Counted from the first letter of the stretch, positions 14,098-64,000 are shown. The stretch: 64,000 nucleotides of DNA from Bacteroidota bacterium (GCA_008933835.1 WBUG01000004.1:27005-91004); one strand, 5' to 3'. Notes: generated by a model from the sequence alone, not told the origin. Numbers and translations: made by a program.

Positions 14098-14165
14098 GGC
14101 AGTTCCGCGCTCCGGGACGGGCGGCTTCCTTCGTTTTTCATTCACAACCAACAAGGAGAGGTGCT

Positions 14166-46235: not shown

Positions 46236-47306
46236 ATGACCATTGCGACCATCACCGGCATCCGTCCGGACTTCATCCGGATGAGCAAAGTGTTCGAACA
46301 GCTGGACAAGCACTTCGAACACATCATGATCCATACGGGCCAGCACTACGACGATGAGCTGAGCCGCATCTTCTTCCGCGAACTGAAGATACGGCAGCCC
46401 GATTACACCCTCGACACGGGGCGGAACAGCCGGAACCACTACGAACAGCTCTCCTACCTCTCCACAGAGGTCATCGGACTGCTCAAACGGCATCGCATCG
46501 ATCCCGCGATGGTGCTCTTCCTCGGCGATTCGAACTCGGCGCTCGCCAGCGTGCCGCTGTTCAAGGAGGGGTACCGCATCGGCCATATCGAAGGGGGCAT
46601 GCGCTCCTACGACCGCCGGATGCCGGAGGAGGTGAACCGCGTGTTGTGCGATTACGTCTCGGACCAGGTGTTCGTCTACACGAAACTGTACAAGGAACGG
46701 CTGGTCCGCGAGAACAAGGATCCCCGCCGTATCCACGTGGTCGGCAACACCATCGTGGAAGTGGTGCGGCAGTACATGCCCACCGGCCGCCGGAGCCGCG
46801 ACTTCATCCTGGCGGACATCCACCGCAGCGAGAACCTCGCCGACGCCCGGCAGTTCGCCCACATTCTGAACTTTTTAGAACGGCTCGGAAAGAAGACCGG
46901 ACTGCCGGTCCGTCTCGTCCGCTTCCGCCGGGCGGAACGGCTCATCGAAGAGCACGGACTCCTCGACGACAAGAAACACATCGAACTCGCCGGACCGTAC
47001 GGTTTTCTGCAGTACCTCGACCTCCAGTACAACGCCTACGGCGTGGTCTCCGATTCCGGTACCTGTCAGGAAGAATGCCCGCTGCTGGGAGTTCCGGTGG
47101 CGGTGCCGAGGAACGCGACCGAACGGCCGGAATCGGTGGAGAACGGCAACAGCATCCTGCTGGGCGAAACGGCCCCGGTCGAGACCATGGTGAAGAAGAC
47201 CCTCAGGTTCTTCGAAGGATATTCCGTCACGCCGGCGCAGCGGCGCTGGCTCGGGAACGGACGAACGTCGGAAACGATCGCGAACATACTCAGAAAGGAA
47301 CTGTGA
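46236..47306 (+). CDS. UDP-N-acetylglucosamine 2-epimerase (non-hydrolysing, WecB/NeuC-like)
   Basis: N-terminal ITGIRPDFIRMSKVF...HTGQHYD; GT-B-like epimerase fold. Confidence 0.75.
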   Translation: MTIATITGIRPDFIRMSKVFEQLDKHFEHIMIHTGQHYDDELSRIFFRELKIRQPDYTLDTGRNSRNHYEQLSYLSTEVIGLLKRHRIDPAMVLFLGDSNSALASVPLFKEGYRIGHIEGGMRSYDRRMPEEVNRVLCDYVSDQVFVYTKLYKERLVRENKDPRRIHVVGNTIVEVVRQYMPTGRRSRDFILADIHRSENLADARQFAHILNFLERLGKKTGLPVRLVRFRRAERLIEEHGLLDDKKHIELAGPYGFLQYLDLQYNAYGVVSDSGTCQEECPLLGVPVAVPRNATERPESVENGNSILLGETAPVETMVKKTLRFFEGYSVTPAQRRWLGNGRTSETIANILRKEL

Positions 47307-47307
47307 C

Positions 47308-48273
47308 ATGAAGAACGTGCTCATCGTCGGAGGGGCCGGCTACGTCGGCGGCGCCATCACGGACCTCGTGGCGGACCAGAAGTACAACGTCCGCGTGTAC
47401 GACTCTCTGCTGTACGAGGATTCGTACCGTAAAGAGATCGACTTCGTCTTCGGCGACGTCCGCGATACCGAACGGCTCCGCCCGCACCTCCGGTGGGCCG
47501 ATACCGTCGTCTGGCTCGCCGCCATCGTCGGCGACGGCGCCTGCCAGCTCAAGCCCGAACTCACCGTGGCGGTGAACGAGGAGCCGCTGAAATGGCTGGC
47601 GGCCAACTATGACGGCCGCATCATCTTCATGTCCACCTGCTCCGTGTACGGAGCGCAGGACCGGGAACTGGACGAAGATTCTCCGACCAGTCCGCTCTCC
47701 CTCTACGCCTCCACCAAGCTTCGGGCGGAATCGTTCCTGAAACAGAAGAACGCGATGATCTTCCGGCTGGGGACCCTCTTCGGCGTGGGGGACCTGTACG
47801 CCCGGATCCGGATGGACCTCGTCGTCAACGCCCTGACCGTCCGCGCTCACACGCAGGGGATGCTGAGCGTGTTCGGCGGCGACCAGTTCCGTCCGCTCCT
47901 CCACGTCAAGGACGTGGCCCGCGCCGTGGTCCAGAACCTCCGGTCCGAGCACACGGGCATCTTCAATCTCCACCGTCAGAACGTCCGCATCGTGGACCTG
48001 GCGTACCAGGTGCGGAACCACTTCCCGGACTGCATCATCGAACGGTCCGAGATGCCGTTCCAGGACACCCGGAACTACCGCGTGAGCAGCCGGAAGGCGC
48101 GCGAGGTGTTCGGGTTCAACCCCGTCCATTCCATCGACGACGGCATCATGGAACTGAAGTTCCTCGTCGAAACGGGCCGCATCAAGGACGTGAACGCGAA
48201 ACGGTACTCCAATCAGGCGTTCCTCTCCACCCAGCTGCAGGAGGAGAAGAAGGCGGAACTCGTGGCGGCATGA
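47308..48273 (+). CDS. NAD-dependent sugar epimerase/dehydratase (SDR family)
   Basis: MKNVLIVGGAGYVGG Rossmann motif; YxxxK region. Confidence 0.75.
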   Translation: MKNVLIVGGAGYVGGAITDLVADQKYNVRVYDSLLYEDSYRKEIDFVFGDVRDTERLRPHLRWADTVVWLAAIVGDGACQLKPELTVAVNEEPLKWLAANYDGRIIFMSTCSVYGAQDRELDEDSPTSPLSLYASTKLRAESFLKQKNAMIFRLGTLFGVGDLYARIRMDLVVNALTVRAHTQGMLSVFGGDQFRPLLHVKDVARAVVQNLRSEHTGIFNLHRQNVRIVDLAYQVRNHFPDCIIERSEMPFQDTRNYRVSSRKAREVFGFNPVHSIDDGIMELKFLVETGRIKDVNAKRYSNQAFLSTQLQEEKKAELVAA

Positions 48274-48719
48274 CCATGAACGACGAACCTCGGCTCATCA
48301 AAGGGGGCATCGCGGTGGACGACCGCGGCTCCGTCAGTTTCACCAACGACTTCCACTTCGAAGGCGTGAAGCGGTACTACATGATCCGGAACCACCGGCA
48401 GGGATTCATCCGCGCGTGGCACGGTCACCGGTTCGAAGGGAAGTACTTCACGGTCGTCAAAGGCTCCGCCCTCGTCTGCGGCGTGAAGATCGACGATTGG
48501 GCGAACCCGTCGCGAAGCCTGCCGGTGCACCGGTACGTCCTGACGGACATCGCCCCTTCGGTCCTCTACCTGCCGGGCGGCTACGCCAACGGCGAGATGT
48601 CGCTCACCGAAGATGCGCAGATCATGGTCTTCTCGACCTCGACACTGCAGGAGAGCGTCAACGATGACGTGCGGTGGGACCAGAACCACTGGAATCCCTG
48701 GACGATCGAATCACGATAG
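48270..48719 (+). CDS. WxcM/FdtA-like cupin (sugar 3,4-ketoisomerase-like)
   Basis: About 149 aa with an RAWHGHR...VVKGSALV cupin core; ATGA overlap with the upstream gene. Confidence 0.5.
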   Translation: MTMNDEPRLIKGGIAVDDRGSVSFTNDFHFEGVKRYYMIRNHRQGFIRAWHGHRFEGKYFTVVKGSALVCGVKIDDWANPSRSLPVHRYVLTDIAPSVLYLPGGYANGEMSLTEDAQIMVFSTSTLQESVNDDVRWDQNHWNPWTIESR

Positions 48720-48727
48720 GAGACGGT

Positions 48728-49564
48728 ATGGAATCGGTTGCGGTCATCGGCGCGGGCGGCATGCTCGGATACGCCGTTTCGGAGTTCTTCGCGCAGCGCG
48801 GGTACGGTGTGCGGCGCATCACCCGGAAGGAGTACGACATCACGAAGCACCCGTTCGCGGCGCTCGAGCGGCTTCTCGCGGACGTGAACGTCGTCATCAA
48901 CTGCGCCGGCGTCATCAAACCGCAGATCGCGGCGAACAGCACGGAGGACGTCATGCGGGTCAACGCGGTCTTCCCGCGCAACCTCGCGACCTTTTGCAAA
49001 GGGATGAACATCAAGTGCTTCCACGTCACGACGGACTGCGTCTACTCCGGTTCGAAGGGCCGGTACAGCGAGGACGACGTGTTCGACGCCGAGGACCTGT
49101 ACGGACTCTCCAAGAACGCCGGCGAACCGATGAACTGCATGACGCTCCGCACCTCCATCATCGGCGAGGAACGGGGACAGTCGCGCTCCCTCGTGGAATG
49201 GGCCCGCAGCCAGCAGGGGAACGGGGTGAACGGGTTCGTCAATCACTTCTGGAACGGCGTCACCACGCTCCACCTCGCCGAGGTCATCGAGAAGATCATC
49301 CGGCACGACATGTACACCGAGGGGATCTACCATCTGCATTCCCCGAACGCGCTCTCCAAGAAGGAACTGCTCGAAGCCATCGACATGGTGTACGAGCTCG
49401 GCCTGACCGTCCGTCCGGCCGAGGCGCCGCAGTTCTGCGACCGCACCCTCGGCAGCATCTACTCGTTCAGCACGCTGCTGTGCACCAAGACCATCCAGAT
49501 GCAGCTCTTCGAGATGAAGGAGTTCTTCGAACTGGCGAACGCCCCGAGCCTGGCAGAACTGTGA
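48728..49564 (+). CDS. RmlD-like NAD(P)-dependent sugar-nucleotide reductase/epimerase
   Basis: MESVAVIGAGGMLG Rossmann N-terminus and RmlD-like size; start moved to ATG 48728. Confidence 0.6.
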   Translation: MESVAVIGAGGMLGYAVSEFFAQRGYGVRRITRKEYDITKHPFAALERLLADVNVVINCAGVIKPQIAANSTEDVMRVNAVFPRNLATFCKGMNIKCFHVTTDCVYSGSKGRYSEDDVFDAEDLYGLSKNAGEPMNCMTLRTSIIGEERGQSRSLVEWARSQQGNGVNGFVNHFWNGVTTLHLAEVIEKIIRHDMYTEGIYHLHSPNALSKKELLEAIDMVYELGLTVRPAEAPQFCDRTLGSIYSFSTLLCTKTIQMQLFEMKEFFELANAPSLAEL

Positions 49565-49615
49565 CCCTGCCGGGCACCGCTCCCGTCCGCCGCCACGACA
49601 TCCACTGAGGAATCC

Positions 49616-52600
49616 ATGTTCTTCCGACGATCCGCCGAACGCCCCGACACCTTTTTCGTCTCCCGCGAGCTCTTCCTCGATGCCGCCCGGCTGTTCATCC
49701 GGCCCGCGGCCACCGTGGCGGACATCGGCTGCGGCATCCGTCCGCAGCGGTACATCGTTCCGCAGACGCATTACTGCGTCGACGCACACCGGCAGTACCT
49801 CGAACACTACCGGCAGCGGGGCGCCGGATTCGCCGGAACGGACTACGTCTTCATCAACGCCCTGTGGGGAGATGCCCTCAACGATCCTCGGCTGGCGGAC
49901 GTGGAGACCATCTTCGCCCTGGACGTGATCGAGCATATCGAGAAGGAGGAGGGGAAGCGGCTGCTGGAACGGACCGTCGCCGCGGCCAAGGAGCAGGTGG
50001 TCATCTTCACCCCGCTGGGCTTCGTGCCGCAGCACCATGAGGACGGGAAGGACGCCTGGGGTCTCGACGGCGGGAAATGGCAGGAACATCTCTCCGGCTG
50101 GCTGCCGGAGGAGTTTGCGGGGGACTGGACGTTCCTCGTCTGCGAGGATTTCCACACCCACGACAACATGCAGCACCGGCATGAGAAACCGGTCGGTGCC
50201 TTCTTCGCGTTCCTCAACAAGCGGGTACCTCCTCCGGCTCCTTCGCCGGACCTCTGTTTCCGGTTCACCGGTCTCGGCGATATCGCGGCCGATGCCGAAA
50301 CGCTCATCAGTCTGGCGAACCAGCGGAGCGGCGGCTGGGAAGCGGTCGTCAGCGACGGCGTTCCCGGAGACGAACTCCGCCATCTCGTCGAGGCGCTCTC
50401 CACCCGTTCATCCTCCTTCCAGCACCGGAACGACGGCCAGTACCGAACGACGGCCCCGACGGTCATCCGCCTGGCGGCGGGGGACCGTCTGTTGCCCGAC
50501 GCCGTCGACACCGTCCGCGCGTCGTTGACCGATACGGCCGGTGAATCGGTGGTGATCTTCACGGACCGCACGCCGGAACCGGGCGGTTCGCTGAAGCGCT
50601 CCGTCCAGCAGACCAGAACGGTTCCGGCGGGATTCGCCGCCCCGGCGATGATGTACGAAGACCTGACACGCCGCGGCTTCACGGCGATGCCGAGAAGCGT
50701 CGCCGAAAGGGTCGAATCGCGTCCTCTGCAGTTCCTGCAGACCGTCAAGGCCGAAGCCCTCTTCCGGGCGATGCCGGTACCGGCACGGATCGTGGAACAG
50801 GCGGTGCTGCAACCGGCCGCCATCGATGCAGATGCCGCCCGTTATGTTCGCATCATGGAATACACCTGGCTGCTGCACCGGTGGATGCGCAATGTGAGCT
50901 TCTCCGAAGCGTACCGCGCGGCGGATATCGATTCTCCTGACGGCAGTCAATCGTTCATTCAGTACTTCTTCGACGGTGCGACGGACGAAGGGAGTCCCGT
51001 CCACAACGCCCTCATCTGGGACGATTACATCGCCTGGCTGACCGCCGGTTTGGCGTCGCTCAACCGGGGGACCAAGAAGCGCATCCTGCAGCACGGCCGG
51101 AAGGTCTTCTCGTCCCTCCGGAACCTCCGTCCGATGTTCGAGCGGTATCATGCCTTCTTTTCGCGGCCGGACTTCGCCGTGCCGGCCGCGGCACGCGCCG
51201 TACCGGTCCCGGTTCCCGCCGACCGGAAGGAGGATGCAGAATACACCGCACTGCTCCACCGTCACATCGAACGGCGTCTCAAGGAGTCCGACCACGACGG
51301 GGCGCAGCTGGCGGTCGAGTTCCTCGTCCGTGCCACCGGAACGCTGGACAGCGCCGTGCTGAACCGTTTCGCAGAATCGGCGATGGTGAACGGCAACCTC
51401 CGCTCCCTGCGTGCGGTGGTCGAACGGCTCGGCGCCTTCGCGCAGCTGTCCGACGCCGGGAAGGCGGCGAGTCTGGCGGCCGGAGACGCTCCGCCGGAGT
51501 CGGGAATCGCGTCCATCGGTGATCCGGTCATCCGCGAGAACCTGCGGCGACATCTCGCCGGCGCCGCCATGCCGTTCGTGACCGACGACATCTCCGCCTG
51601 GACGTGCGATGCGGACGTGCATCGGAACGTGATGGTCCACTCGGTGAAGGCCTCCTGCCGGGAGTGCGGAACCCCGCTGCAGCGCACCGTCACGCTGCCC
51701 ATCGGCGGCGCACCCGGGAACGCCCCCGTGCTCTGCCACTCCTGCGCCGCGCCGTACACCCTTACGGACCGGCTCTTCCGGGAATGGGTCGAACGGCGGA
51801 ACGCCGCGCTGCCGGCCGCACCGCCGGTCCGCGCTTCGGGCCCCCGCGTGGCGCTGGTGATGCGCTATTCGAGCGTCATCAGCGGCGGCGTGAACATGAT
51901 CTTCCAGTACGCGGAATGGCTCCGCGAACTCGGCTGCACCGTCACCGTCCATTCCAACGAACCGAACTCGCCCCTCCGGAAGTTCACCGGCACCTTCAGC
52001 ATGGTGAAGAACGCCGGCGAGGTCCCCGCCGGGAAGTACGACGCCGTCTTCTGCATGTGCGCCGCGGACGTCCCGGTGATGCTGCAGAAGTATCCGAAGG
52101 AACGGGTCGCCCTCATCTGTCAGGGATACGAGGGGTATCACTACGGCCACACCTATGAGGAGCTCCGTGCGGACAAGTACATCTTCGACGAGATCCATGC
52201 ACTTCCGGCGGCGAAGTTCGCCGTCTCTCGCCATCTCACGCATCTCTTCGCGGAGAAGTTCGGCCAGCAGGCGTACTACATCCCCAACGGCACGGACCGG
52301 TCCGTGTTCCGTCCGGACCTGAGCATACGCCGAACGTCCCCTTCCGTACTGTTCGTCGGCAATCCGTACCAGCAGCTGAAGGGGGCCGATATGCTCCTTT
52401 CGGCCCTCTCATCGCTCCAGGCGAGCCGGTACGCGATGCCCGGCCTGACCCTCCATATCGCCATCGGAGGGGGGGCGGAGAAGATGGACCACCGCATCCA
52501 GACCGACCGGTTCGCGGTGCAGTACCATGTGGGGCTCGGCCGGAAGGAGATGGCCGCGCTGATGAACAGCGTCGACCTCGTCGTCAACACGTCGTGGTAC

Positions 52601-54502
52601 GAAGGATTCTCCCTGCCGATGCTCGAGGCGATGGCGTGCGGCACGCCGGTCATCACCACGCGCAACATGGGGGCGGAGAGCTTCTGCGAGCACGGGAAGA
52701 ACGCGTTCGTCGTTCCGTACGGCGACGTCTCCGGACTCGCCACCGCGATGCTCGCCGTGCTCAGCGGCGCTGAAGACCTCGCCCCGATGCTGCGCGAGGC
52801 GCAGAAGACCGCCGATGAGTATTCCACGGAGCGTTCGGTCCGCGCATTCGTGAACGAGACGGAACGGTTCCTCGGCGTCTCGTTCTCGCGGAGCCGGGTC
52901 GAACCGCTTGTCCGGCGTGCGGCGCATGCCGCTCCGTCGTCCGCGCGCGACCGCTCCGACCGTCCGAAGTTCACCGTGCTCGTGCCGACCTACAATCAGG
53001 CGGGGTACATCCCCGATACGCTCGACAGCCTGCGCCGTCAGACGGTGGAGGACTGGGAGGCGGTGGTGGTGAACGACGGCTCCACGGACAACACCCGCCG
53101 CGTCATCGAGCGGTACGCCCTGGCGGACGACCGCATCCGGACCTTCCATAAATCGAACGGCGGCGTCGCGTCCGCGCTCAACGAGGCGCTCCGTCAGGCA
53201 CGCGGCGAATGGATCCTCTGGCTCTCGTCCGACGACCTCTTTGAGGCGGACAAGCTGAAGGTCCACGAACGCCATTTCGCCGCCCACCCGGAGGCGCGAT
53301 TCTTCTACACCAACTACAGTCTGCTCTACCAGCAGACGCAGCAGAAGGTCCCCGGGTATCCCGGCATCGCCGCGGACGAGGACCGGGTGCTGAGCTTCTT
53401 CTACACCAACTACATCAACGGCATCAGCATCTGCATCCACCGCTCGGTCTTCTCGTCGGTCGGCTTCTTCAACGAGATCCTCCGCGATGGTCAGGACTAC
53501 GATATGTGGCTGCGCATCGCCCGTCAGTTTCCGTTGCAGTACATCGACGCCCGGACCTGCACGTACCGTGTCCACCCGGAGCAGGGCGCCAGCAAGTTCC
53601 CCGAGGCGGGCATCTACGATTCGGCGCTGTCGTGCGCGCAGTTCCTCAACACCCATCCGTACGCCGCCATCTTTCCGAAGCTCGATCCGGCGGACCCGGT
53701 CTCGGTGGACACGGCGGTGAAGAAGACCTTCTCCATCGTGATGGACCAGAACTCCTTCATCAACAAGCTCGGGTTCGGCCCGCTCCTCATCGACCGGCTG
53801 CACGAATGGGTCTCCGCCGGTTCGCCCCCCGGATACCGCACCGAACTGAACGCCAAGATCCGGCAGTACATCGTGGCCGTCCTGGGACAGGAACAGTCCG
53901 AGCCGGTGCGGGAGATGTTCGCGACGCTCTACAACGCCGGAACGGACGATTTCCGCTACCGTCCCCGCGACGTCTTCGCGCATGCGCACCGCTTCATCCT
54001 CGAACGGAAGCGGACCGTTGCGCCGGCCGAGGCGGAGAAGTACGACCGGTACATGAAACGGTTCGATGCCATCGTCGCGCTCCGGACCGAGGGACGGAAG
54101 CATGTGGCGCTGGCGGTACAGGCGATGGAGCGCCGGTCGTACGACGAAGCGCTCCGGCACATCGCCGCGGCGGAAGGGGCTGACCTGCACGACGTGCAGG
54201 AAGAACTGAGCGTGATGAAGGGGTGTGCACACCTCGGTCTGCAGGACCTCCCGAAGGCGCGGGAGGCGTTCGAAGAGACCCTTGCACGGAATCCCGAATC
54301 GTCCGAAGCGTGTGCCGGCCTCGGCGAGGTCTTCTTCCTGGCCGGCATGGACCGGGAGTCCAAGACGATGTTCGAATGGGCGGTCCGGTACGATGCGTCG
54401 AACCAGAGTGCGATGAACGGACTGTGCCGCGCCAATACGGAGCTCGGACTCCCCGAGGACGACAATGCTCTCCGGACGGTATCGGAGGAGGTGCCCGCAT
54501 GA
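49616..54502 (+). CDS. Giant fusion protein: class-I SAM methyltransferase + unknown ~500-aa region + GT4 + GT2 + C-terminal TPR
   Basis: MTase motif I VADIGCGIRPQ and post-motif II ALDVIEHIEKEEGKRLL; GT4 signature EGFSLPMLEAMACGTPVITT; GT2 signature FTVLVPTYNQAGYIPDTLDSLRRQT...NDGSTDNT...SSDD; TPR-like C-terminus. Confidence 0.7.
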   Translation: MFFRRSAERPDTFFVSRELFLDAARLFIRPAATVADIGCGIRPQRYIVPQTHYCVDAHRQYLEHYRQRGAGFAGTDYVFINALWGDALNDPRLADVETIFALDVIEHIEKEEGKRLLERTVAAAKEQVVIFTPLGFVPQHHEDGKDAWGLDGGKWQEHLSGWLPEEFAGDWTFLVCEDFHTHDNMQHRHEKPVGAFFAFLNKRVPPPAPSPDLCFRFTGLGDIAADAETLISLANQRSGGWEAVVSDGVPGDELRHLVEALSTRSSSFQHRNDGQYRTTAPTVIRLAAGDRLLPDAVDTVRASLTDTAGESVVIFTDRTPEPGGSLKRSVQQTRTVPAGFAAPAMMYEDLTRRGFTAMPRSVAERVESRPLQFLQTVKAEALFRAMPVPARIVEQAVLQPAAIDADAARYVRIMEYTWLLHRWMRNVSFSEAYRAADIDSPDGSQSFIQYFFDGATDEGSPVHNALIWDDYIAWLTAGLASLNRGTKKRILQHGRKVFSSLRNLRPMFERYHAFFSRPDFAVPAAARAVPVPVPADRKEDAEYTALLHRHIERRLKESDHDGAQLAVEFLVRATGTLDSAVLNRFAESAMVNGNLRSLRAVVERLGAFAQLSDAGKAASLAAGDAPPESGIASIGDPVIRENLRRHLAGAAMPFVTDDISAWTCDADVHRNVMVHSVKASCRECGTPLQRTVTLPIGGAPGNAPVLCHSCAAPYTLTDRLFREWVERRNAALPAAPPVRASGPRVALVMRYSSVISGGVNMIFQYAEWLRELGCTVTVHSNEPNSPLRKFTGTFSMVKNAGEVPAGKYDAVFCMCAADVPVMLQKYPKERVALICQGYEGYHYGHTYEELRADKYIFDEIHALPAAKFAVSRHLTHLFAEKFGQQAYYIPNGTDRSVFRPDLSIRRTSPSVLFVGNPYQQLKGADMLLSALSSLQASRYAMPGLTLHIAIGGGAEKMDHRIQTDRFAVQYHVGLGRKEMAALMNSVDLVVNTSWYEGFSLPMLEAMACGTPVITTRNMGAESFCEHGKNAFVVPYGDVSGLATAMLAVLSGAEDLAPMLREAQKTADEYSTERSVRAFVNETERFLGVSFSRSRVEPLVRRAAHAAPSSARDRSDRPKFTVLVPTYNQAGYIPDTLDSLRRQTVEDWEAVVVNDGSTDNTRRVIERYALADDRIRTFHKSNGGVASALNEALRQARGEWILWLSSDDLFEADKLKVHERHFAAHPEARFFYTNYSLLYQQTQQKVPGYPGIAADEDRVLSFFYTNYINGISICIHRSVFSSVGFFNEILRDGQDYDMWLRIARQFPLQYIDARTCTYRVHPEQGASKFPEAGIYDSALSCAQFLNTHPYAAIFPKLDPADPVSVDTAVKKTFSIVMDQNSFINKLGFGPLLIDRLHEWVSAGSPPGYRTELNAKIRQYIVAVLGQEQSEPVREMFATLYNAGTDDFRYRPRDVFAHAHRFILERKRTVAPAEAEKYDRYMKRFDAIVALRTEGRKHVALAVQAMERRSYDEALRHIAAAEGADLHDVQEELSVMKGCAHLGLQDLPKAREAFEETLARNPESSEACAGLGEVFFLAGMDRESKTMFEWAVRYDASNQSAMNGLCRANTELGLPEDDNALRTVSEEVPA

Positions 54503-55752
54503 ACCCGTCCGCCTCCCGCCGGCGCCCGACCATCGCGCTGTGCATGATCGTGAAGAACGAGGAGCGCTACCTCCGCGGCTGCCTCGAATCCGCCCGGCCG
54601 TATGTGGACGAGATCGTCGTCGTGGACACCGGTTCCACCGACGCGACCGTCTCCATCGCCGAAGAGTTCGGCGCCGTCGTCCGGCATTTCGCCTGGAACG
54701 GGAATTTTTCCGACGCCCGCAACGAATCGCTCCGCAGCGCCTCGTCCGACTGGGTGCTGTACCTGGACGCCGACGAACGCCTTCTCACCGGCGATGCGCT
54801 CCGCGCCATCGATCCGCCGAAGAACGCCGGCGCGTACAACGTCTCCATCCGGAGCCGGCACATCCTCCCGAGCGGCGTGGTGGACCAGGTGAACCAGTAC
54901 CAGCGTTTCTTCCGGCGTTCACCCTCCGTCCGGTTCGAAGGGATGGTGCACGAACAGGTGATGCCGTCGGTGCTCCGGAGCGGGAAGAATATCCTTCCCA
55001 GCGCCGTCGTCATCGAACATCTCGGGTACGGTGAGAGTCTCGAGAAGATCATGCAGAAGTGCGACCGCAATGCGGAGCTGCTCCGCCGCCAGCTGGCGGC
55101 CAATCCGGACGACCACTACGCACGGTATCAGCTCGGCAATACGCTCGGCGTGATGCAACGCTACGACGAAGCGGAGCCCCACCTGCTGGCGGCGGTGGAG
55201 AAGGACCGGAACGCGAGCATCCGGGCATCGGCATGCAACATCCTCGTCGAGGTGGCGATGCACCGTCAGGATCTGGCGGCCGCCGAATCGTGGTGCCGTC
55301 GTTCCATCACGCTCGTGCCGGACCAGGTGATGGCGTACTGGTTCCTCTCCGGCATCCTCGCGTTCCGACACCGTTACGCGGAAGGGATCGATCTCCTCTC
55401 GACGATCAGGAAACAGGCAGGGAAAGAGACCGGTCTGGCGCACGACATGGCGCTGTCCGAACCGGAGTTGCAGCAGCGCGCCGCCCTTTGCTTTGAGGGA
55501 CTGGCGAACGACGCGATGACCTCCAAGGATATGGCCGGCGTGCAGGCGGCGGTGGGGGCGGCGGAAGCGTACGGCGTCCGGACGGTGAAGCTACAGACCG
55601 CCGGAGCACAGTCGGCCATGGCGCTGAACGACCTCCGCGTGGCGGCGGGGCGCATCGACTATGTCATCCGCCACCTGCCGGAAGACGCTGTCGTTCAAAA
55701 GGAGCGGTTCCTCGCTGTGAAGAAACGTATCGAAGCGTTGGAGCCCGTGTAG
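54499..55752 (+). CDS. GT2 glycosyltransferase with C-terminal TPR repeats
   Basis: IALCMIVKNEERYL...VVDTGSTD...FAWNGNFSDARNE...YLDADE (GT2, SunS/flagellin-GT-like); TPR C-terminus; ATGA overlap with the upstream gene. Confidence 0.7.
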   Translation: MNPSASRRRPTIALCMIVKNEERYLRGCLESARPYVDEIVVVDTGSTDATVSIAEEFGAVVRHFAWNGNFSDARNESLRSASSDWVLYLDADERLLTGDALRAIDPPKNAGAYNVSIRSRHILPSGVVDQVNQYQRFFRRSPSVRFEGMVHEQVMPSVLRSGKNILPSAVVIEHLGYGESLEKIMQKCDRNAELLRRQLAANPDDHYARYQLGNTLGVMQRYDEAEPHLLAAVEKDRNASIRASACNILVEVAMHRQDLAAAESWCRRSITLVPDQVMAYWFLSGILAFRHRYAEGIDLLSTIRKQAGKETGLAHDMALSEPELQQRAALCFEGLANDAMTSKDMAGVQAAVGAAEAYGVRTVKLQTAGAQSAMALNDLRVAAGRIDYVIRHLPEDAVVQKERFLAVKKRIEALEPV

Positions 55753-55833
55753 CACAATATTGTGCAGGTGTCCGGCATTTCGCACTTCCGTCCGCCAACC
55801 CCCCTGTTCCGCGGGAAGTAGAGGGACATGATT

Positions 55834-55849
55834 TGGCACGGTAATTGTC
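55834..55849 (+). promoter_or_regulatory. Sigma-54-like -24/-12 element (TGGCACG-N4-TTGT) upstream of flagellin copy 1
   Basis: TTGGCACGgtaaTTGTC has the GG-N10-G(T) spacing of RpoN promoters with one mismatch in -12 GC; no sigma-28 motif in this leader. Confidence 0.3.
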
Positions 55850-55943
55850 GGATAAGGACCTATAGTCGATTCACACCGTTCAGGGAAGAACGGTCCGTTC
55901 GTTGCGGCATGGATGCCATCACCGATCATTCTGTGAGGTCTAT

Positions 55944-56765
55944 ATGGCATTCTCGACCGGCGGTCGCATCAACACCAACATCGGTGCGGACCAGGCCTAC
56001 GCCGCCCTGAACGATATCACGCGCGATCTCGGAGTCCATCAGCTCCGGCTCGCGACCGGCAAGCGCATCAATTCCGCCTCCGACGACGCTTCGGGCTACG
56101 TCATTTCGAAGAAGATGGAGGGGCGCATCCGCGCGATGACCGCGGCGCTGGACAACGTCGGCGACGCGCAGAGCGTGTACGGCGTGGCCGAAGGGGCGCT
56201 GCAGACCATCGCCGACATCCTGACGACGATCCAGGAGAAGCAGACCCGCGCCGCGAACGGCGCGATGGGGACCGAAGAGAAATCGGCCATCGTGTCCGAG
56301 ATCAACTCGCTCCTCTCCGAGATCGACGACATCACCGGTCAGACGAAGTTCAACGGCACGACGCTCCTCTCCGGCGGATACGCACAGGGGTTCCAGGTGG
56401 GAGAGAGCGCGTCGAGCATCCTCACCGTCTCCTTCAATTCGGTCGACACCGCGGCCCTGCTGGGCGTGGCGGCCGGCTCCGTCACCACCTCCAACATCGG
56501 TTCCCTCACCGTCGAACAGGCCCTCTCTTCGATCAACACCGAGATCGGCAAGATCGGGGCGTACGTCAACCGGCTGCAGACCAAGGAATCGAACATCACC
56601 ACCGCCATCACGAACACCGAGGCGGCGAAGAGCCGCATCATGGACGCGGATGTCGCCAAGGAACAGATCTTCGCATCGAAGCTGCAGATCCTGCAGCAGA
56701 CGGCCACGGCCCAGCTGGCCCAGGCCAATGCGTCGCCGCAATCATTCTTATCTCTCTTCAAGTGA
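55944..56765 (+). CDS. fliC: Flagellin (copy 1 of 5)
   Basis: Conserved flagellin N-terminus (RINTNIGA...LRLATGKRINSASDDASGY) and C-terminus (DADVAKEQ...ILQQT..AQLAQAN.SPQ..LSLF); 273 aa. Confidence 0.9.
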   Translation: MAFSTGGRINTNIGADQAYAALNDITRDLGVHQLRLATGKRINSASDDASGYVISKKMEGRIRAMTAALDNVGDAQSVYGVAEGALQTIADILTTIQEKQTRAANGAMGTEEKSAIVSEINSLLSEIDDITGQTKFNGTTLLSGGYAQGFQVGESASSILTVSFNSVDTAALLGVAAGSVTTSNIGSLTVEQALSSINTEIGKIGAYVNRLQTKESNITTAITNTEAAKSRIMDADVAKEQIFASKLQILQQTATAQLAQANASPQSFLSLFK

Positions 56766-56781
56766 CACATCCCCCATACGG

Positions 56782-56811
56782 CACCGGAACGGCCTGAACG
56801 GCGTTCCGGTG
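56782..56811. terminator. Perfect 10-bp-arm hairpin after flagellin 1
   Basis: CACCGGAACG-N10-CGTTCCGGTG. Confidence 0.5.
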
Positions 56812-56858
56812 CCTCCTTCCTTCCGCTCCGTGCGAGCGGTGTTCCGTCATTTTTCCCC

Positions 56859-56885
56859 TCAAGAACCGCCGTGAGGTGCCGATAA
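56859..56885 (+). promoter_or_regulatory. Sigma-28 (FliA) promoter for flagellin 2
   Basis: TCAAGAAC-N11-GCCGATAA; -10 matches the GCCGATAA consensus perfectly. Confidence 0.6.
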
Positions 56886-56969
56886 CCTTTATGGCAGGCC
56901 GAACGCAGGCCTGTCCCACACATCTCGGGCAAGGACGCCCGACCCACTTATAATTACACGGAGGTAATT

Positions 56970-57803
56970 ATGGCATTCTCAACAGGCGGCAGGATCAACA
57001 CCAACATCGGCGCGAACCAGGCGTACAGCGCGCTGAACACCATCAGCCGCGAGCTCGGCGTGCACCAGCTGCGTCTGGCCACCGGCAAGCGCATCAATTC
57101 CGCGGCGGACGACGCCTCCGGATACGTGATCTCCAAGAAGATGGAAGGACGCATGCGCTCGATGAGCGCCGCTCTGGACAACGTCGGCGACGCGCAGAGC
57201 GTGTACGGCGTGGCCGAAGGGGCGTATCAGACGGTCGCGGACATCCTGACCACCATCAAGGAGAAGCAGACCCGGGCGGCCAACGGCGCCATGGGAGGGG
57301 ACGAGAAGGACGCCATCGCGGCCGAGATCAACTCCCTCATGAACGAGATCACCGACATCGCCAACCAGACGAAGTTCAACGGCACCACGCTGCTCACCGG
57401 CGCCTCGAACTACTCCACCTCGTTCCAGGTCGGCGAAGCGTCGACGGACACGCTGACCGTGTCGTTCGCGAAGATCACCACCGCGTCCGGCGGACTGCTG
57501 TCGGTCGCCGCCGGTTCCGTGACCTCGGTGAACATCAGCGATCTGAGCGTCGATACGGCGTTGACCACCATCAACACCGAGATCGGGAAGATCGGTGCGC
57601 ACGTGAACCGGCTCCAGACCAAGGAGGCGAACATCACGACCGCCATCACCAACACCGAAGCCGCCAAGAGCCGCATCATGGACGCCGACGTCGCCAAGGA
57701 ACAGATCCTGGCGTCGAAGCTCTCCATCCTGCAGCAGACGTCCACGGCGCAGCTGGCCCAGGCCAACTCCTCGCCGCAGGCGTTCCTCTCGTTGTTTCGT
57801 TAA
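56970..57803 (+). CDS. fliC: Flagellin (copy 2 of 5)
   Basis: As copy 1; GGAGG RBS; 277 aa. Confidence 0.9.
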   Translation: MAFSTGGRINTNIGANQAYSALNTISRELGVHQLRLATGKRINSAADDASGYVISKKMEGRMRSMSAALDNVGDAQSVYGVAEGAYQTVADILTTIKEKQTRAANGAMGGDEKDAIAAEINSLMNEITDIANQTKFNGTTLLTGASNYSTSFQVGEASTDTLTVSFAKITTASGGLLSVAAGSVTSVNISDLSVDTALTTINTEIGKIGAHVNRLQTKEANITTAITNTEAAKSRIMDADVAKEQILASKLSILQQTSTAQLAQANSSPQAFLSLFR

Positions 57804-57825
57804 CGGAGTGATCGAGTGAGCGGAC

Positions 57826-57847
57826 GGGATGCCCGTACGGGCATCCC
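57826..57847. terminator. Perfect palindrome GGGATGCCCGTACGGGCATCCC after flagellin 2
   Basis: 9-bp arms with a GTAC loop followed by a C-run; terminator-like. Confidence 0.45.
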
Positions 57848-57963
57848 CCCGCCGCTGTGATCGCTCCCGGACCGGACGCGGGACCGCGGCATCATGACAC
57901 AGTTCTCATCCACACCAGGACGGGCAAGGACGCCCGTTCTCCCATCCACACAAGGAGGTAGTT

Positions 57964-58788
57964 ATGGCATTCTCAACAGGCGGTAGGATCAACACCAACA
58001 TCGGCGCGAACCAGGCGTACAGCGCGCTGAACACCATCAGCCGCGAGCTCGGCGTGCACCAGCTGCGTCTGGCCACCGGCAAACGCATCAATTCCGCGGC
58101 GGACGACGCCTCCGGATACGTGATCTCCAAGAAGATGGAAGGACGCATGCGCTCGATGAGCGCCGCTCTGGACAACGTCGGTGACGCGCAGAGCGTCTAC
58201 GGCGTGGCCGAAGGGGCGTATCAGACGGTCGCGGACATCCTGACCACCGTCAAGGAGAAGCAGACCCGGGCGGCCAACGGCGCCATGGGCAGCGAGGAGA
58301 AGGACGCCATCGCGGCCGAGATCAACTCGCTGATGAGCGAGATCGACGACATCTCCAACCAGACGAAGTTCAACGGCACGACGCTGCTCTCCGGCACGGC
58401 GTACTCGAAGAGCTTCCAGGTCGGTGAAGGCTCGTCCGACACGCTCACGGTGGCGTTCTCGCTCGTCAGCGCCGGCGGACTGCTCGGCGTGGCGGCCGGT
58501 TCGGTCACCTCGGCCAACATCGCCAGCCTCACCGTCGATGCGGGTCTCACCACGGTGAACACCGAGATCGGAAAGATCGGTGCGCACGTGAACCGGCTCC
58601 AGACCAAGGAGTCGAACATCACGACGGCCATCACCAACACCGAGGCCGCGAAGAGCCGCATCATGGACGCCGACGTCGCCAAGGAACAGATCATGGCATC
58701 GAAGCTCTCCATCCTGCAGCAGACGTCCACGGCGCAGCTGGCCCAGGCCAACTCCTCGCCGCAGGCGTTCCTGTCGCTCTTCCGCTGA
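57964..58788 (+). CDS. fliC: Flagellin (copy 3 of 5)
   Basis: As above; 274 aa; no obvious sigma-28 motif upstream. Confidence 0.9.
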   Translation: MAFSTGGRINTNIGANQAYSALNTISRELGVHQLRLATGKRINSAADDASGYVISKKMEGRMRSMSAALDNVGDAQSVYGVAEGAYQTVADILTTVKEKQTRAANGAMGSEEKDAIAAEINSLMSEIDDISNQTKFNGTTLLSGTAYSKSFQVGEGSSDTLTVAFSLVSAGGLLGVAAGSVTSANIASLTVDAGLTTVNTEIGKIGAHVNRLQTKESNITTAITNTEAAKSRIMDADVAKEQIMASKLSILQQTSTAQLAQANSSPQAFLSLFR

Positions 58789-58892
58789 TAACAGCATGAC
58801 GCCCGGGCGGCGGTCCTGACCGGACCCCGCCCGGCGGATTCTGAACCCCGCCCCGAGGGCCGACCCCCGAGGGGAGGGGTGTTTTTTGTCCT

Positions 58893-58918
58893 CAAGATTC
58901 CTCCGGAAATGCCGATAC
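58893..58918 (+). promoter_or_regulatory. Sigma-28 (FliA) promoter for flagellin 4
   Basis: TCAAGATT-N11-GCCGATAC. Confidence 0.6.
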
Positions 58919-58982
58919 ATAATATGTAAAACTCACGGGCACGGATGCCCAGAGCATTCACATATCATACACGGAGGTAGTT

Positions 58983-59807
58983 ATGGCTTTCTCAACAGGC
59001 GGTAGGATCAACACGAACATTGGCGCCAACCAGGCGTACAGTGCTCTCAACTCGGTCAGTCGCGAACTCGGAGTGTACCAGCTCCGGCTGGCGACCGGCA
59101 AGCGCATCAACCAGGCGTCGGATGATGCGTCCGGGTACGTGATCTCCAAGAAGATGGAAGGGCGCATCCGCTCCATGTCGGCGGCCCTGGACAACGTCGG
59201 CGACGCGCAGAGCGTCTACGGCGTGGCCGAAGGGGCCTATCAGACGGTCGCGGACATCCTGACCACCATCAAGGAGAAACAGACCCGGGCGGCGAACGGC
59301 GCCATGGGAAGCGAGGAGAAGGACGCCATCGCGGCGGAGATCAACTCGCTGATGGGCGAGATCGGGGACATCGCCAACCAGACGAAGTTCAACGGTACGA
59401 CGCTGCTGTCGGGCACGGCGTACTCGCAGACCTTCCAGGTCGGCGAAGGAACGACCGACACCCTCACGGTGGCATTCTCGCTGGTCAGCGCCGGCGGACT
59501 GCTCGGCGTGGCGGCCGGTTCGGTCACCTCGGCCAACATCGCCAGTCTCACCGTCGATGCGGGTCTGACCACGATCAATACCGAGATCGGGAAGATCGGT
59601 GCGCACGTGAACCGGCTCCAGACCAAGGAGGCGAACATCACGACCGCCATCACCAACACCGAAGCGGCCAAAAGCCGGATCCTGGATGCGGATGTCGCCA
59701 AGGAGCAGATCCAAACGTCCAAGCTGTCCATCCTGCAGCAGACGTCGACCGCTCAATTGGCACAGGCCAACTCGTCACCCCAATCGTTCTTGTCGCTGTT
59801 CCGGTAA
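58983..59807 (+). CDS. fliC: Flagellin (copy 4 of 5)
   Basis: As above; 274 aa; nearly identical to copy 3. Confidence 0.9.
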   Translation: MAFSTGGRINTNIGANQAYSALNSVSRELGVYQLRLATGKRINQASDDASGYVISKKMEGRIRSMSAALDNVGDAQSVYGVAEGAYQTVADILTTIKEKQTRAANGAMGSEEKDAIAAEINSLMGEIGDIANQTKFNGTTLLSGTAYSQTFQVGEGTTDTLTVAFSLVSAGGLLGVAAGSVTSANIASLTVDAGLTTINTEIGKIGAHVNRLQTKEANITTAITNTEAAKSRILDADVAKEQIQTSKLSILQQTSTAQLAQANSSPQSFLSLFR

Positions 59808-59925
59808 GAACGGGAGAGACCATCGAAGCGGGGGGTTCCTGACCGGAGCCCGCCGCTTTTTTTATTCCGTCCCCTTTTTTCGTCCGTTTTCGGCACCTCG
59901 GCCAGACGGATGTCCCCCGTCCATC

Positions 59926-59952
59926 CTCAAGATTACCGGTACCGTGCCGATA
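59926..59952 (+). promoter_or_regulatory. Sigma-28 (FliA) promoter for flagellin 5
   Basis: TCAAGATT-N11-GCCGATAT. Confidence 0.6.
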
Positions 59953-60029
59953 TATAGGTAGGAGGATTCCCGCACATCCTCCCGGAACGGATTCCAAGAC
60001 TCATCGTTGTTCACTACAAGGAGGTAACC

Positions 60030-60851
60030 ATGGCATTCTCAACAGGCGGCAGGATCAACACCAACATCGGCGCCAACCAGGCGTACGGTGCACTGAACAC
60101 CATCAGCCGCGAGCTCGGCGTGCACCAGCTGCGGCTGGCCACCGGCAAACGCATCAATTCCGCAGCGGATGACGCTTCGGGATACGTGATCTCCAAGAAG
60201 ATGGAAGGCCGCATTCGGTCCATGAGCGCAGCTCTGGACAACGTCGGCGACGCGCAGAGCGTCTACGGCGTGGCCGAAGGGGCGTATCAGACCATCGCGG
60301 ACATCCTCACCACCATCAAGGAGAAACAGACCCGGGCGGCCAACGGCGCCATGGGAGGGGACGAGAAGGACGCCATCGCGGCGGAGATCAACTCGCTGAT
60401 GAGCGAGATCAACGACATCTCCAACCAGACGAAGTTCAACGGAACGGCACTGCTCTCAGCGAGCTTCTCCACGTCGTTCCAGGTCGGCGACGGCACCTCG
60501 GACACGCTCTCCGTCTCGTTTGCGTCGGTCGGCGCCACCGGACTTCTCGGCGTGGCGGCCGGTTCGGTCACCTCGGCGAACATCTCGAGCCTGACGGTCG
60601 ACACCGGACTCACCACGGTGAACACCGAGATCGGGAAGATCGGCGCCAACGTCAACCGCCTCCAGACCAAGGAAGCGAACCTGACGACCGCCATCACCAA
60701 CACCGAAGCGGCGAAGAGCCGCATCATGGACGCCGACGTCGCGAAGGAACAGATCATGACGTCCAAGCTCTCCATCCTGCAGCAGACGTCGACGGCGCAG
60801 CTGGCCCAGGCCAACTCCTCGCCGCAGGCGTTCCTGTCGCTCTTCCGGTGA
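60030..60851 (+). CDS. fliC: Flagellin (copy 5 of 5)
   Basis: As above; 273 aa. Confidence 0.9.
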   Translation: MAFSTGGRINTNIGANQAYGALNTISRELGVHQLRLATGKRINSAADDASGYVISKKMEGRIRSMSAALDNVGDAQSVYGVAEGAYQTIADILTTIKEKQTRAANGAMGGDEKDAIAAEINSLMSEINDISNQTKFNGTALLSASFSTSFQVGDGTSDTLSVSFASVGATGLLGVAAGSVTSANISSLTVDTGLTTVNTEIGKIGANVNRLQTKEANLTTAITNTEAAKSRIMDADVAKEQIMTSKLSILQQTSTAQLAQANSSPQAFLSLFR

Positions 60852-60924
60852 TCCACAGTTCCATCGGAGGGGGGGCCGTTACCGGGTCCTCCTCCGCTAC
60901 ACAGGGCATGAACAACGATAGCGT

Positions 60925-61296
60925 ATGGGAGCGGATATGTTCGCGTACAAACAGCAGTCAGCCGAGACCGAAACGGGCGTGATGACCGGACCGGCGCCGT
61001 CGCTGGCCACCACGAGGTACCGGCGGGAAGACTCGATGAACCTCACTCCGGTGCAGGTCATCCAGCGGCTCTATGACGTCGCCATCATGGCCATCCGGAA
61101 GGACGACCGGGACCTGGCGCGCCGGGCCATCAACGAGCTCATCTCGGCGCTGAACTTCGAGCACCGCGAGGTCGCGCTCGGCCTCTTCAAGCTGTACGAT
61201 TACTCCAAGACGATGCTGCGCCAGGGGAAGAACGACGAAGCGCTCACCGTGCTCCTCGAACTCCGTTCCGCCTGGGTCGAAGCGTTCAAGCTCTGA
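60925..61296 (+). CDS. fliS: Flagellar export chaperone FliS (probable true start at ATG 60937)
   Basis: FliS-like core (LYDVAIMAIRKDDRDLARRAINELISALN...LFKLYDYSKTML...LLELRSAWVEA). Confidence 0.7.
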   Translation: MGADMFAYKQQSAETETGVMTGPAPSLATTRYRREDSMNLTPVQVIQRLYDVAIMAIRKDDRDLARRAINELISALNFEHREVALGLFKLYDYSKTMLRQGKNDEALTVLLELRSAWVEAFKL

Positions 61297-63448: not shown

Positions 63449-63709
63449 ATGGATGTCCGAAAGATTTCACAGCCGCAGAACGCGTATGATACGGTACGGG
63501 TCCGGAAGGAAAAGGCCGTCGAGGAGAAGCAACGGCGGCGCACCGACGATACGGCGGAACTCTCGCCCGAAGCGGTGAAACTGTTCCAGGCCGAGGAGAA
63601 CCGGAAGATCGACATGGTCACCGAACGGATCCAGACGGGATACTATTTCCGTCAGGAAGTGGTCGAGAAGGTGGCCGACGAACTTCTCCAGCAATTCACC
63701 CATCCGTAA
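63449..63709 (+). CDS. flgM: Anti-sigma-28 factor FlgM
   Basis: About 87 aa; FlgM-like C-terminus RIQTGYYFRQEVVEKVADELL; GGGAG RBS. Confidence 0.6.
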   Translation: MDVRKISQPQNAYDTVRVRKEKAVEEKQRRRTDDTAELSPEAVKLFQAEENRKIDMVTERIQTGYYFRQEVVEKVADELLQQFTHP

Positions 63710-63729: not shown

Positions 63730-64000
63730 ATGCTGCACGATCAAGAGGCGCTGGTCCGCGGCGTCCAGATCCATCGTCGCATCAACGACCTGAGCAAGCT
63801 CTGGGCGGACCGGAACATGCCCCAGCAGACCGTCGTTCTCTCGCAGGAGCTTTATTTCGCCCTGCTGGAGTACACGGTGCTGATGAACGAAAGCGCCGTC
63901 AACCGCGACCTGCTGCTGTGGGAACTGTTCCACCGCGACGAACTCTTCTTTGATACCGGCGAACTTCAGCTCCGCGTCCGGGTCGATTTCTTCCTTCCGC
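63730..64000 (+). CDS. 3'-truncated ORF downstream of flgM, possibly an FlgN-like chaperone
   Basis: Open frame from ATG 63730 to the window end; the flgM-flgN gene order is common; weak sequence support. Confidence 0.25.
   Translation, partial: MLHDQEALVRGVQIHRRINDLSKLWADRNMPQQTVVLSQELYFALLEYTVLMNESAVNRDLLLWELFHRDELFFDTGELQLRVRVDFFLP

Follow-up and report, generated by a model that had tools for sequence, protein, structure and literature searches.

Paired GGA hairpins in the leaders of tandem flagellin genes of a Bacteroidota bacterium, probable translational operators for CsrA

A 64-kb stretch of DNA from a Bacteroidota bacterium (hereafter the window, meaning the whole stretch that was analysed) contains five tandem flagellin genes, each preceded by a leader with at least two GGA motifs. 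We consider it probable, at roughly 0.7, that these leaders are cis-acting translational operators for a dimer of CsrA and provide the RNA component of the homeostatic circuit of flagellin, FliW and CsrA. The leaders share a defined motif and structure, their stems covary, the spacing of the two sites is kept, the element is specific to flagellin leaders, and in related lineages it co-occurs with fliW-csrA. Control of the CsrA/FliW type had been proposed in a first-pass annotation of this DNA. That proposal is partly supported by the results below, strongly on the side of the RNA, with the protein presumed for this genome. The five genes, each range beginning at the ATG, are as follows.

55944-56765, + strand: flagellin copy 1, 273 aa, with Pfam Flagellin_N and Flagellin_C
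56970-57803, + strand: flagellin copy 2, 277 aa
57964-58788, + strand: flagellin copy 3, 274 aa
58983-59807, + strand: flagellin copy 4, 274 aa
60030-60851, + strand: flagellin copy 5, 273 aa

As the first-pass annotation had stated, a hairpin with GGA in its loop is found in all five flagellin leaders, and all six hairpins that it quoted are present in the sequence. In each leader one such hairpin has its GGA 33-41 nt 5' of the ATG. For a chance test, such a hairpin was defined as a stem of at least 4 bp with a loop of 4-7 nt. The + strand of the window holds 122 of them against 60-93 in shuffled sequences, and about 0.03 are expected per 16-nt interval, yet each of the five leaders has one between -33 and -41. 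The leader hairpins are real and far beyond chance. Each of two sequence patterns has four occurrences on the two strands of the window: GGCA.GGA[ATC]GCC is confined to leaders 1-4, and ACA.GGAGGTA to the Shine-Dalgarno (SD) sequences of copies 2-5.

The two or more GGA motifs per leader are a hairpin (site 1) and the SD sequence (site 2) in copies 2-5, and two hairpins in copy 1. In leaders 2-5, both sites are hairpins with a hexaloop of the form C-ANGGAN-G, and the hairpin cores of copies 2 and 3 are an identical 16-mer. The distance from GGA to GGA is 26-31 nt between hairpin and SD in copies 2-5 and 27 nt between the two hairpins of copy 1. The sites are listed below with the position of GGA relative to the ATG and, where folding was used, the pair probabilities.

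56925-56942, + strand: copy 2 site 1, UCGGGC-AAGGAC-GCCCGA, GGA at -37, pair probabilities 0.85-1.0
56950-56971, + strand: copy 2 site 2, AUAAUUAC-ACGGAG-GUAAUUAU, SD GGA in a hexaloop, stem extending into the AUG
57917-57940, + strand: copy 3 site 1, AGGACGGGC-AAGGAC-GCCCGUUCU, GGA at -36, 9-bp stem, pair probabilities 0.99-1.0
57950-57960, + strand: copy 3 site 2, ACAAGGAGGUA, over the SD (sequence match)
58937-58950, + strand: copy 4 site 1, GGGCA-CGGA-UGCCC, GGA at -40, pair probabilities 0.69-1.0
58969-58979, + strand: copy 4 site 2, ACACGGAGGUA, over the SD (sequence match)
59984-59995, + strand: copy 5 site 1, GGAA-CGGA-UUCC, weak hairpin, GGA at -41, pair probability ~0.34
60016-60026, + strand: copy 5 site 2, ACAAGGAGGUA, over the SD (sequence match)
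55875-55894, + strand: copy 1 distal hairpin, ACCGUUC-AGGGAA-GAACGGU, GGA at -60
55906-55917, + strand: copy 1 proximal hairpin, GGCA-UGGA-UGCC, GGA at -33, 27 nt 3' of the distal GGA
55935-55938, + strand: copy 1 SD, GAGG (GUGAGGU), no GGA (read from the sequence)

Scanning the GTDB species representatives with the window flagellin gave 60 loci, of which 36 (about 30 assemblies) are Ignavibacteria-type relatives with 62-92% identity to that protein; the nearest outgroup is Calditrichia, at 50% flagellin identity. Leaders were extracted at every flagellin start in the related loci, which yielded about 57 distinct sequences. Their common architecture consists of a sigma-28-type promoter, a 5' stem-loop, a GGGC-ANGGAW-GCCC hairpin, a G-poor spacer, UACA-N-GGAGGUA, 4 nt and the AUG, and it persists in genomes ranging from 37 to 64% GC, in leaders whose flanking sequence has diverged. 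The 5' stem-loops, compared by eye in several related leaders, have variable sequence and the same position.

At site 1, the A two bases 5' of GGA and the GG itself are present in 57 of 57 leaders and the A of GGA in 55 of 57, the base 3' of GGA is G in one of the 57, and the loop is closed by C-G. Four core pairs are nearly always kept, with G-C changed to A-U in five leaders and C-G to A-U in three, and the fifth pair is C-G in 15, U-A in 10 and G-C in 3. On three counts, namely the covariation score, the share of paired cells and the number of cells with both sides changed, site 1 surpassed all 500 shuffles, and on every covariation measure it also surpassed every slid register. Site 2 is UACA-N-GGAGGUA, with ACA invariant in 58 of 58 leaders. 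The flanking bases pair to give a short stem (C-G, A-U, U-A). Its third pair, U-A in 47 leaders, is reversed to A-U in 4 others, and a fourth pair is A-U (16 leaders), C-G (7), U-A (7) or U-G (4). Because these flanks form a stem, the GGA of the SD also lies within an ANGGAG hexaloop. The GGA-GGA distance in 58 leaders is 21-44 nt, with a median of 31. The spacer between the sites has a composition of its own (68 leaders: A 43%, U 25%, C 25%, G 6%; window positions 58951-58968 are an example); the depletion of G holds even in a 64% GC genome, and ACAUUCA is frequent in the spacer.

A covariance model (R1) was built from 41 leaders of other genomes and included no window sequence. Its significant matches in the window were leaders 2-5 and no others, and the 128 kb searched gave no further match worth noting apart from a local one at copy 1.

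56922-56972, + strand: R1 match, copy 2, E 4.6e-19
57917-57966, + strand: R1 match, copy 3, E 1.6e-16
58932-58985, + strand: R1 match, copy 4, E 4.5e-19
59978-60032, + strand: R1 match, copy 5, E 7.6e-9

On the proximal hairpin of copy 1, R1 gave a local match with E 0.13, and in 570 kb of outgroup and fliW-csrA loci it gave nothing below E 0.03. An Rfam search of positions 55700-61000 with E up to 10 returned no relevant family, the single match being a chance one inside a coding region.

In related lineages, csrA adjoins flagellins. In the Calditrichia locus L045 (OZ245730.1), three flagellins lie downstream of flgK-flgL-fliW-csrA, and their leaders carry both sites in the same arrangement; these flagellins share 50% identity with the window flagellin along the entire protein and 57-66% within the N-terminal 60 residues. 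Locus L085, which has a type IX secretion neighbour gene, shows the order flgK-csrA-flgL-fliW-GT/TPR-flagellin (GT, glycosyltransferase; TPR, tetratricopeptide repeat), and its flagellin leader carries an AGGU-AAGGAA-ACCU hairpin plus CAAGGAGGA.

The model that we propose is conditional on two steps that we infer, the binding of CsrA to the leader sites and the direction of regulation. Copies 2, 4 and 5 would be transcribed from sigma-28 promoters, and copy 3 by read-through from copy 2. One CsrA dimer would bridge the two C-ANGGAN-G hexaloop hairpins, of which site 2 is the SD itself and site 1 lies ~26-31 nt 5' of it, and since the bridging dimer would cover the SD, binding of the 30S subunit would be blocked. 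With flagellin under export, free FliW would bind CsrA and translation would resume; upon accumulation of flagellin, FliW would be sequestered and CsrA would repress. Copy 1 carries this two-site module in a shifted position, ~24 nt 5' of an SD without GGA, and it is probably subject to weaker or indirect control, or serves in titration of CsrA.

The promoters divide the leaders into two classes. The following elements were read from the sequence, except for the two 5'-terminal stem-loops, which come from folding.

55833-55848, + strand: sigma-54-like promoter of copy 1, TTGGCACGGTAATTGT
56858-56885, + strand: sigma-28-type promoter of copy 2, CTCAAGA-N13-GCCGATAA
56893-56915, + strand: 5'-terminal stem-loop of copy 2, at the predicted transcript start
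58892-58918, + strand: sigma-28-type promoter of copy 4, TCAAGA...GCCGATAC
59927-59953, + strand: sigma-28-type promoter of copy 5, TCAAGA...GCCGATAT
59960-59982, + strand: 5'-terminal stem-loop of copy 5, GGAGGAU...AUCCUCC

The copy 2 promoter fits TAAA-N15-GCCGATAA, which we take to be the FliA/SigD consensus, and C[TA]AAG...GCCGATAA is found 5' of most homologous leaders. Upstream of copy 3 (57804-57963) no sigma-28, sigma-54 or sigma-70 promoter could be recognised, and a search of the flagellin region for sigma-70 promoters found none. The hairpin 3' of copy 2 (GGGAUGCCCGUACGGGCAUCCC) has no T tract. With no recognisable promoter in front of copy 3 and no T-tract terminator after copy 2, transcription probably runs on from copy 2 into copy 3.

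The promoter of copy 1 fits TGGCAC-N5-TTGC, presumably the sigma-54 -24/-12 consensus. TTGGCAC-N5-TTG is kept 5' of the orthologous first flagellin in five loci (L011, L014, L015, L017, L019), and the C at -12 is not conserved. These class-1 orthologues have two GGA hairpins and an SD of GAGG without GGA. Their proximal hairpin is conserved as GGC-ANGGAW-GCC, and the distal stem differs wholly between genomes, with compensatory pairs (ACCGUUC/GAACGGU in copy 1 compared with CAUUGUUUA/UAAACAAUG and a CGGA loop in the orthologues). In the five orthologues 26 nt separate the GGA motifs of the two hairpins, compared with 27 nt in copy 1, and three leaders that resemble class 1 more loosely (L016, L026, L031) have 19-22 nt. 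That the two-site geometry is kept where the module sits off the SD suggests that the ligand is a dimer. The leaders of the sigma-54 class form a variant with the two-site module and no SD overlap. A sigma-54-like first flagellin next to sigma-28-type other copies parallels flaB and flaA in Campylobacter.

Two further observations concern leaders that depart from the common fold. In copy 1, the start region AUGGCAUUC (55944-55952) is complementary to GGAUGCCAU (55910-55918), which makes up the loop and the 3' arm of the proximal hairpin; pairing between the two is preferred in predicted folds and hides GGA and AUG alike, and copy 5 shows a weaker form of it. It may be functional, or a mere consequence of the shared GGCA. 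In two low-GC relatives, flagellins directly after flgE (L027 6217, L051 10001) have an AU-rich leader with UAAGGAGAU and no hairpin, so not all flagellin paralogues of the clade carry the operator.

Several results weigh against CsrA as the ligand. Searches by tblastn and profile hidden Markov model (HMM) found neither csrA nor fliW in the window or in the contig from 23.7 to 100.7 kb (77 kb), and around the 36 related flagellin loci neither gene turned up within a distance of 10 kb. No Bacteroidota genome with both the leader motif and csrA was found among the loci examined. One flagellated Bacteroidota lineage of 52% GC (L117-L119, L117 being DPLS01) has flgL-motAB with no fliW-csrA after motAB, and CsrA is reportedly scarce in Bacteroidota (PMC13443453). 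On the RNA side, the SD of copies 2-5 has GGA in the context ACA-N-GGAGGUA and that of copy 1 has none. The proximal hairpin of copy 1 has a pair probability of ~0 in whole-leader folds because GGAUGCCAU pairs with AUGGCAUUC, and site 1 of copy 5 is disfavoured in thermodynamic folds at ~0.34.

These departures also limit what the first-pass annotation had generalised over all copies. A GGAGG SD, which it placed in every leader, exists in copies 2-5 and not in copy 1 (GUGAGGU). Its prediction that GGA stays in loops when whole leaders are folded held for copies 2-4 (~1.0) and for the distal hairpin of copy 1, which is present in the minimum-free-energy fold with GGA unpaired at a probability of 1.0; the hairpin of copy 5 and the proximal one of copy 1 are not robust in such folds. 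The likeness to the CsrA sites BS1/BS2 stands for copies 2-5, through hexaloops, SD overlap, spacing and covariation. Copy 1, lacking GGA at its SD, falls outside that model.

CsrA and FliW do occur in flagellated Bacteroidota. A FlgK search led to metagenome-assembled genomes (MAGs) labelled 'Bacteroidota bacterium' that have fliW-csrA (L074/L075 at 57% GC, L076/L077 at 66% GC, the latter with a type IX secretion neighbour gene), the flagellar cluster ending in flgN-flgK-flgL-motAB-fliW-csrA-motAB in all four. CsrA proteins of csrA-bearing Bacteroidota named as such by NCBI are MGA9121600.1, HUI09971.1, HUI64442.1 and HTY01229.1. The best solved-structure match of CsrA from the MAGs is 5DMB, which we take to be the complex of CsrA with bound FliW, and FliW of the csrA-bearing MAGs is 46% identical to Calditrichia FliW. 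Tetranucleotide usage of the csrA-bearing loci correlates with that of the window at r 0.95-0.965, as compared with 0.945 for confirmed flagellin-locus relatives and 0.86 for an unrelated locus of equal GC. We infer that csrA and fliW are encoded in this genome.

Other searches for the two genes gave little. In 70 loci searched for CsrA and FliW by tblastn and profile HMM, the sole match was the Calditrichia locus. A scan of JGI metagenomes with FliW of the Bacteroidota MAGs gave 31 more loci, none with a window-type flagellin within 10 kb. The FlgK search provided no link between motif and csrA within one genome (P0227 and P0231 are on short contigs, and P0205, in L117, is without fliW-csrA), and when the csrA loci were scanned for the motif with a loose regular expression, matches stayed at background level. 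A protein search with Calditrichia CsrA returned 20 matches, none identifiable as the window clade (L071 and L072 are other lineages), and the best 120 of at least 8000 candidates in a search with a CsrA profile were from Bacillus, Borrelia and Gammaproteobacteria. The genome paper of I. album has no mention of csrA or fliW; in the literature searched, Ignavibacteria and fliW were never linked, and Ignavibacteria and csrA appeared together in a single paper, each once and in passing.

Some side observations belong here. In some flagellated Bacteroidota, flgL-motAB-fliW-csrA-motAB is followed by a response regulator (L074 13795-14466), and in L117 the cluster stops after the first motAB (13799-14234). 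On a JGI contig (L102, ~1293), ACAAGGAGG stands in front of fliW itself and repeats the ACA-N-GGAGG context of the flagellin SD site, which might reflect feedback on fliW-csrA or chance. The C-terminal Asn of flagellin, implicated in FliW binding, was rejected as a test for the presence of FliW, since it is conserved also in flagellins of bacteria that have no FliW.

Another protein could be the ligand. This clade or a part of it could have lost csrA while retaining near-invariant CANGGANG hexaloop operators on all its flagellin mRNAs, and a different RNA-binding protein could read the CsrA code in flagellated Bacteroidota, the likeness to CsrA sites being due to common ancestry followed by a change of binder, or to convergence. 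Such a replacement agrees with the failure to find csrA or fliW at any of the clade's flagellin-linked loci that were examined, with the contrast between L117-L119 and L074-L077 after motAB, with the reported rarity of CsrA in the phylum (PMC13443453) and with the lack of an Ignavibacteria-fliW link in the literature searched. We nevertheless consider it unlikely. The motif follows CsrA specificity position by position at both sites, lineages with csrA adjoining the flagellins have the same architecture, and near the flagellins there is no conserved candidate gene for an RNA-binding protein. The conserved neighbour families are FliS, FliD, FlaG, the FliT-like and FlgM-like proteins, glycosyltransferase, kinase and response regulators.

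An explanation without any protein ligand appears equally improbable. Hairpin 1 would then be an mRNA stabiliser or a ribosome standby or enhancer element, and the SD stem would tune initiation. GGA belongs to the SD core, the spacer is G-poor (6% G), unstructured and reminiscent of translational enhancers, and 5'-terminal stem-loops are typical for stable mRNAs. However, a standby SD should favour GGAG, and G follows the loop GGA in one of 57 leaders; moreover, the A two bases 5' of GGA, invariant at both sites, has no role in anti-Shine-Dalgarno pairing and is the CsrA signature. It is because of these two features that we disfavour a protein-independent function, and the two-site spacing is kept in copy 1 even though the module lies off the SD. 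The simplest account, paralogy of duplicated genes together with chance GGA hairpins in a GC-rich genome, could appeal to the five recent paralogues and to the 16-mer that copies 2 and 3 share. Conservation across ~57 distinct leaders, whose genomes range from 37 to 64% GC and whose flanks have diverged, together with compensatory stem changes, excludes it for practical purposes, and the motif is absent elsewhere in the window. CsrA remains the ligand that we favour.

The window is a stretch of a 112.7-kb MAG contig (ENA ERZ24907662, 'Bacteroidota_g_SpSt_333_contig_626') and has a GC content of 64%. Its proteins are KAB2925625-42 in NCBI (locus tags F9K22_, label 'Bacteroidetes/Bacteroidota bacterium'), and all called genes are on the + strand. 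They include glycoside hydrolases with type IX secretion tails and two HDOD genes. The flagellins are followed by fliS, fliD, flaG, a FliT-like gene, a FlgM-like gene and a 97-aa open reading frame (ORF). Past the 3' end of the window the contig encodes a GerE-type response regulator, a histidine kinase and a sigma-54 activator. The activator, which has a receiver domain, the kinase and the GerE-type regulator (L001 13056-14480) are conserved downstream of the flagellin cluster in 18-20 loci.

Directly 5' of the flagellins (46236-55752) are sugar-nucleotide genes and genes for a 1628-aa multi-domain glycosyltransferase and a GT2-TPR protein; the GT2-TPR gene adjoins flagellins in 23 loci as well as in Calditrichia and L085. 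This block is probably a flagellin glycosylation island. The FlgM-like protein of 86 aa (63449-63709; hypothetical in NCBI, F9K22_02985) is conserved in 23 loci. Its Pfam FlgM match is sub-threshold only (E 0.21), and its position and the pattern of its C terminus suggest an anti-sigma-28 factor. The 97-aa ORF directly 3' of it (63730-64000; L001 10282-10575) is shared by 10 related loci and belongs to no Pfam family, the best match being DUF7238 with E 0.019. As a hidden CsrA or FliW it was rejected, with no support from Pfam or from the CsrA and FliW HMMs.

If CsrA is the ligand, the flagellin-FliW-CsrA checkpoint would extend, in its RNA part and very probably in full, to the flagellated Bacteroidota, namely an Ignavibacteria-type clade in a phylum reportedly scarce in CsrA that the literature searched does not connect with this checkpoint. 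The leaders would be the first family of CsrA-type operators of flagellin genes to be described from Calditrichota and flagellated Bacteroidota. As a cis-regulatory RNA family they have ~57 distinct members, are sharply conserved and covarying, and are absent from Rfam. The locus also offers a natural comparison between sigma-28 leaders with a site over the SD and a sigma-54 leader with a displaced module. Because the mechanism is already known from Bacillus, Campylobacter and others, the surprise for a specialist is modest.

Both leader sites equal the CANGGANG apical hexaloop, which is the high-affinity CsrA/RsmE motif (PMC4894983). The flaA leader of C. jejuni has two ANGGA stem-loops (SL1/SL2) that are 21 nt apart, the second over the ribosome-binding site, and the intersite optimum for a CsrA dimer is ~18 nt (PMC4894983). 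The distances of 26-31 nt in the window and 21-44 nt in the family are compatible with bridging by one CsrA dimer. Such bridging spans an intersite range of about 10-63 nt. Site 2 agrees at 10 of 12 positions with RUACARGGAUGU, which we take to be the consensus from systematic evolution of ligands by exponential enrichment.

The FlbT/FlaF system of Caulobacter also represses flagellin post-transcriptionally through the 5' untranslated region, coupled to flagellar assembly, with unrelated proteins and no known GGA-hexaloop logic. No FlbT or FlaF match was found among the small proteins of the window flagellar cluster. In B. subtilis, the hag leader has two GGA stem-loops at which CsrA blocks ribosome binding, with FliW as the antagonist (PMC13443453). 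Like the leaders here, hag has a promoter of the sigma-D/sigma-28 type. Its leader also carries a 5'-terminal stem-loop, as do several of those described here. Unlike in the window, fliW-csrA lies directly upstream of hag in Bacillus, whereas none is found within 10 kb here; moreover, the window belongs to another phylum and has several flagellin paralogues, each with its own operator.

The Calditrichia locus L045 is known from sequence alone and thus serves as a comparison rather than as a reference system. It has homologous flagellins, the same leader layout of a hairpin plus ACAAGGAGGU, a glycosyltransferase-TPR gene upstream and fliW-csrA adjacent. It differs in the stem GAGAA/UUCUC of two of its three leaders. 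Compared with C. jejuni, the window has five tandem flagellin genes, csrA and fliW that are presumed for this genome, leaders of ~70-85 nt instead of the 45 nt of flaA, an extra 5' stem-loop, and a sigma-54 copy with two upstream hairpins and an SD without GGA. In common with C. jejuni are the pairing of a sigma-28 major flagellin with a sigma-54 flagellin, two ANGGA stem-loops with the second on the ribosome-binding site, hexaloops of the CANGGANG type, compensatory changes, and a similar range of spacing, 21 nt in flaA and 26-31 nt here.

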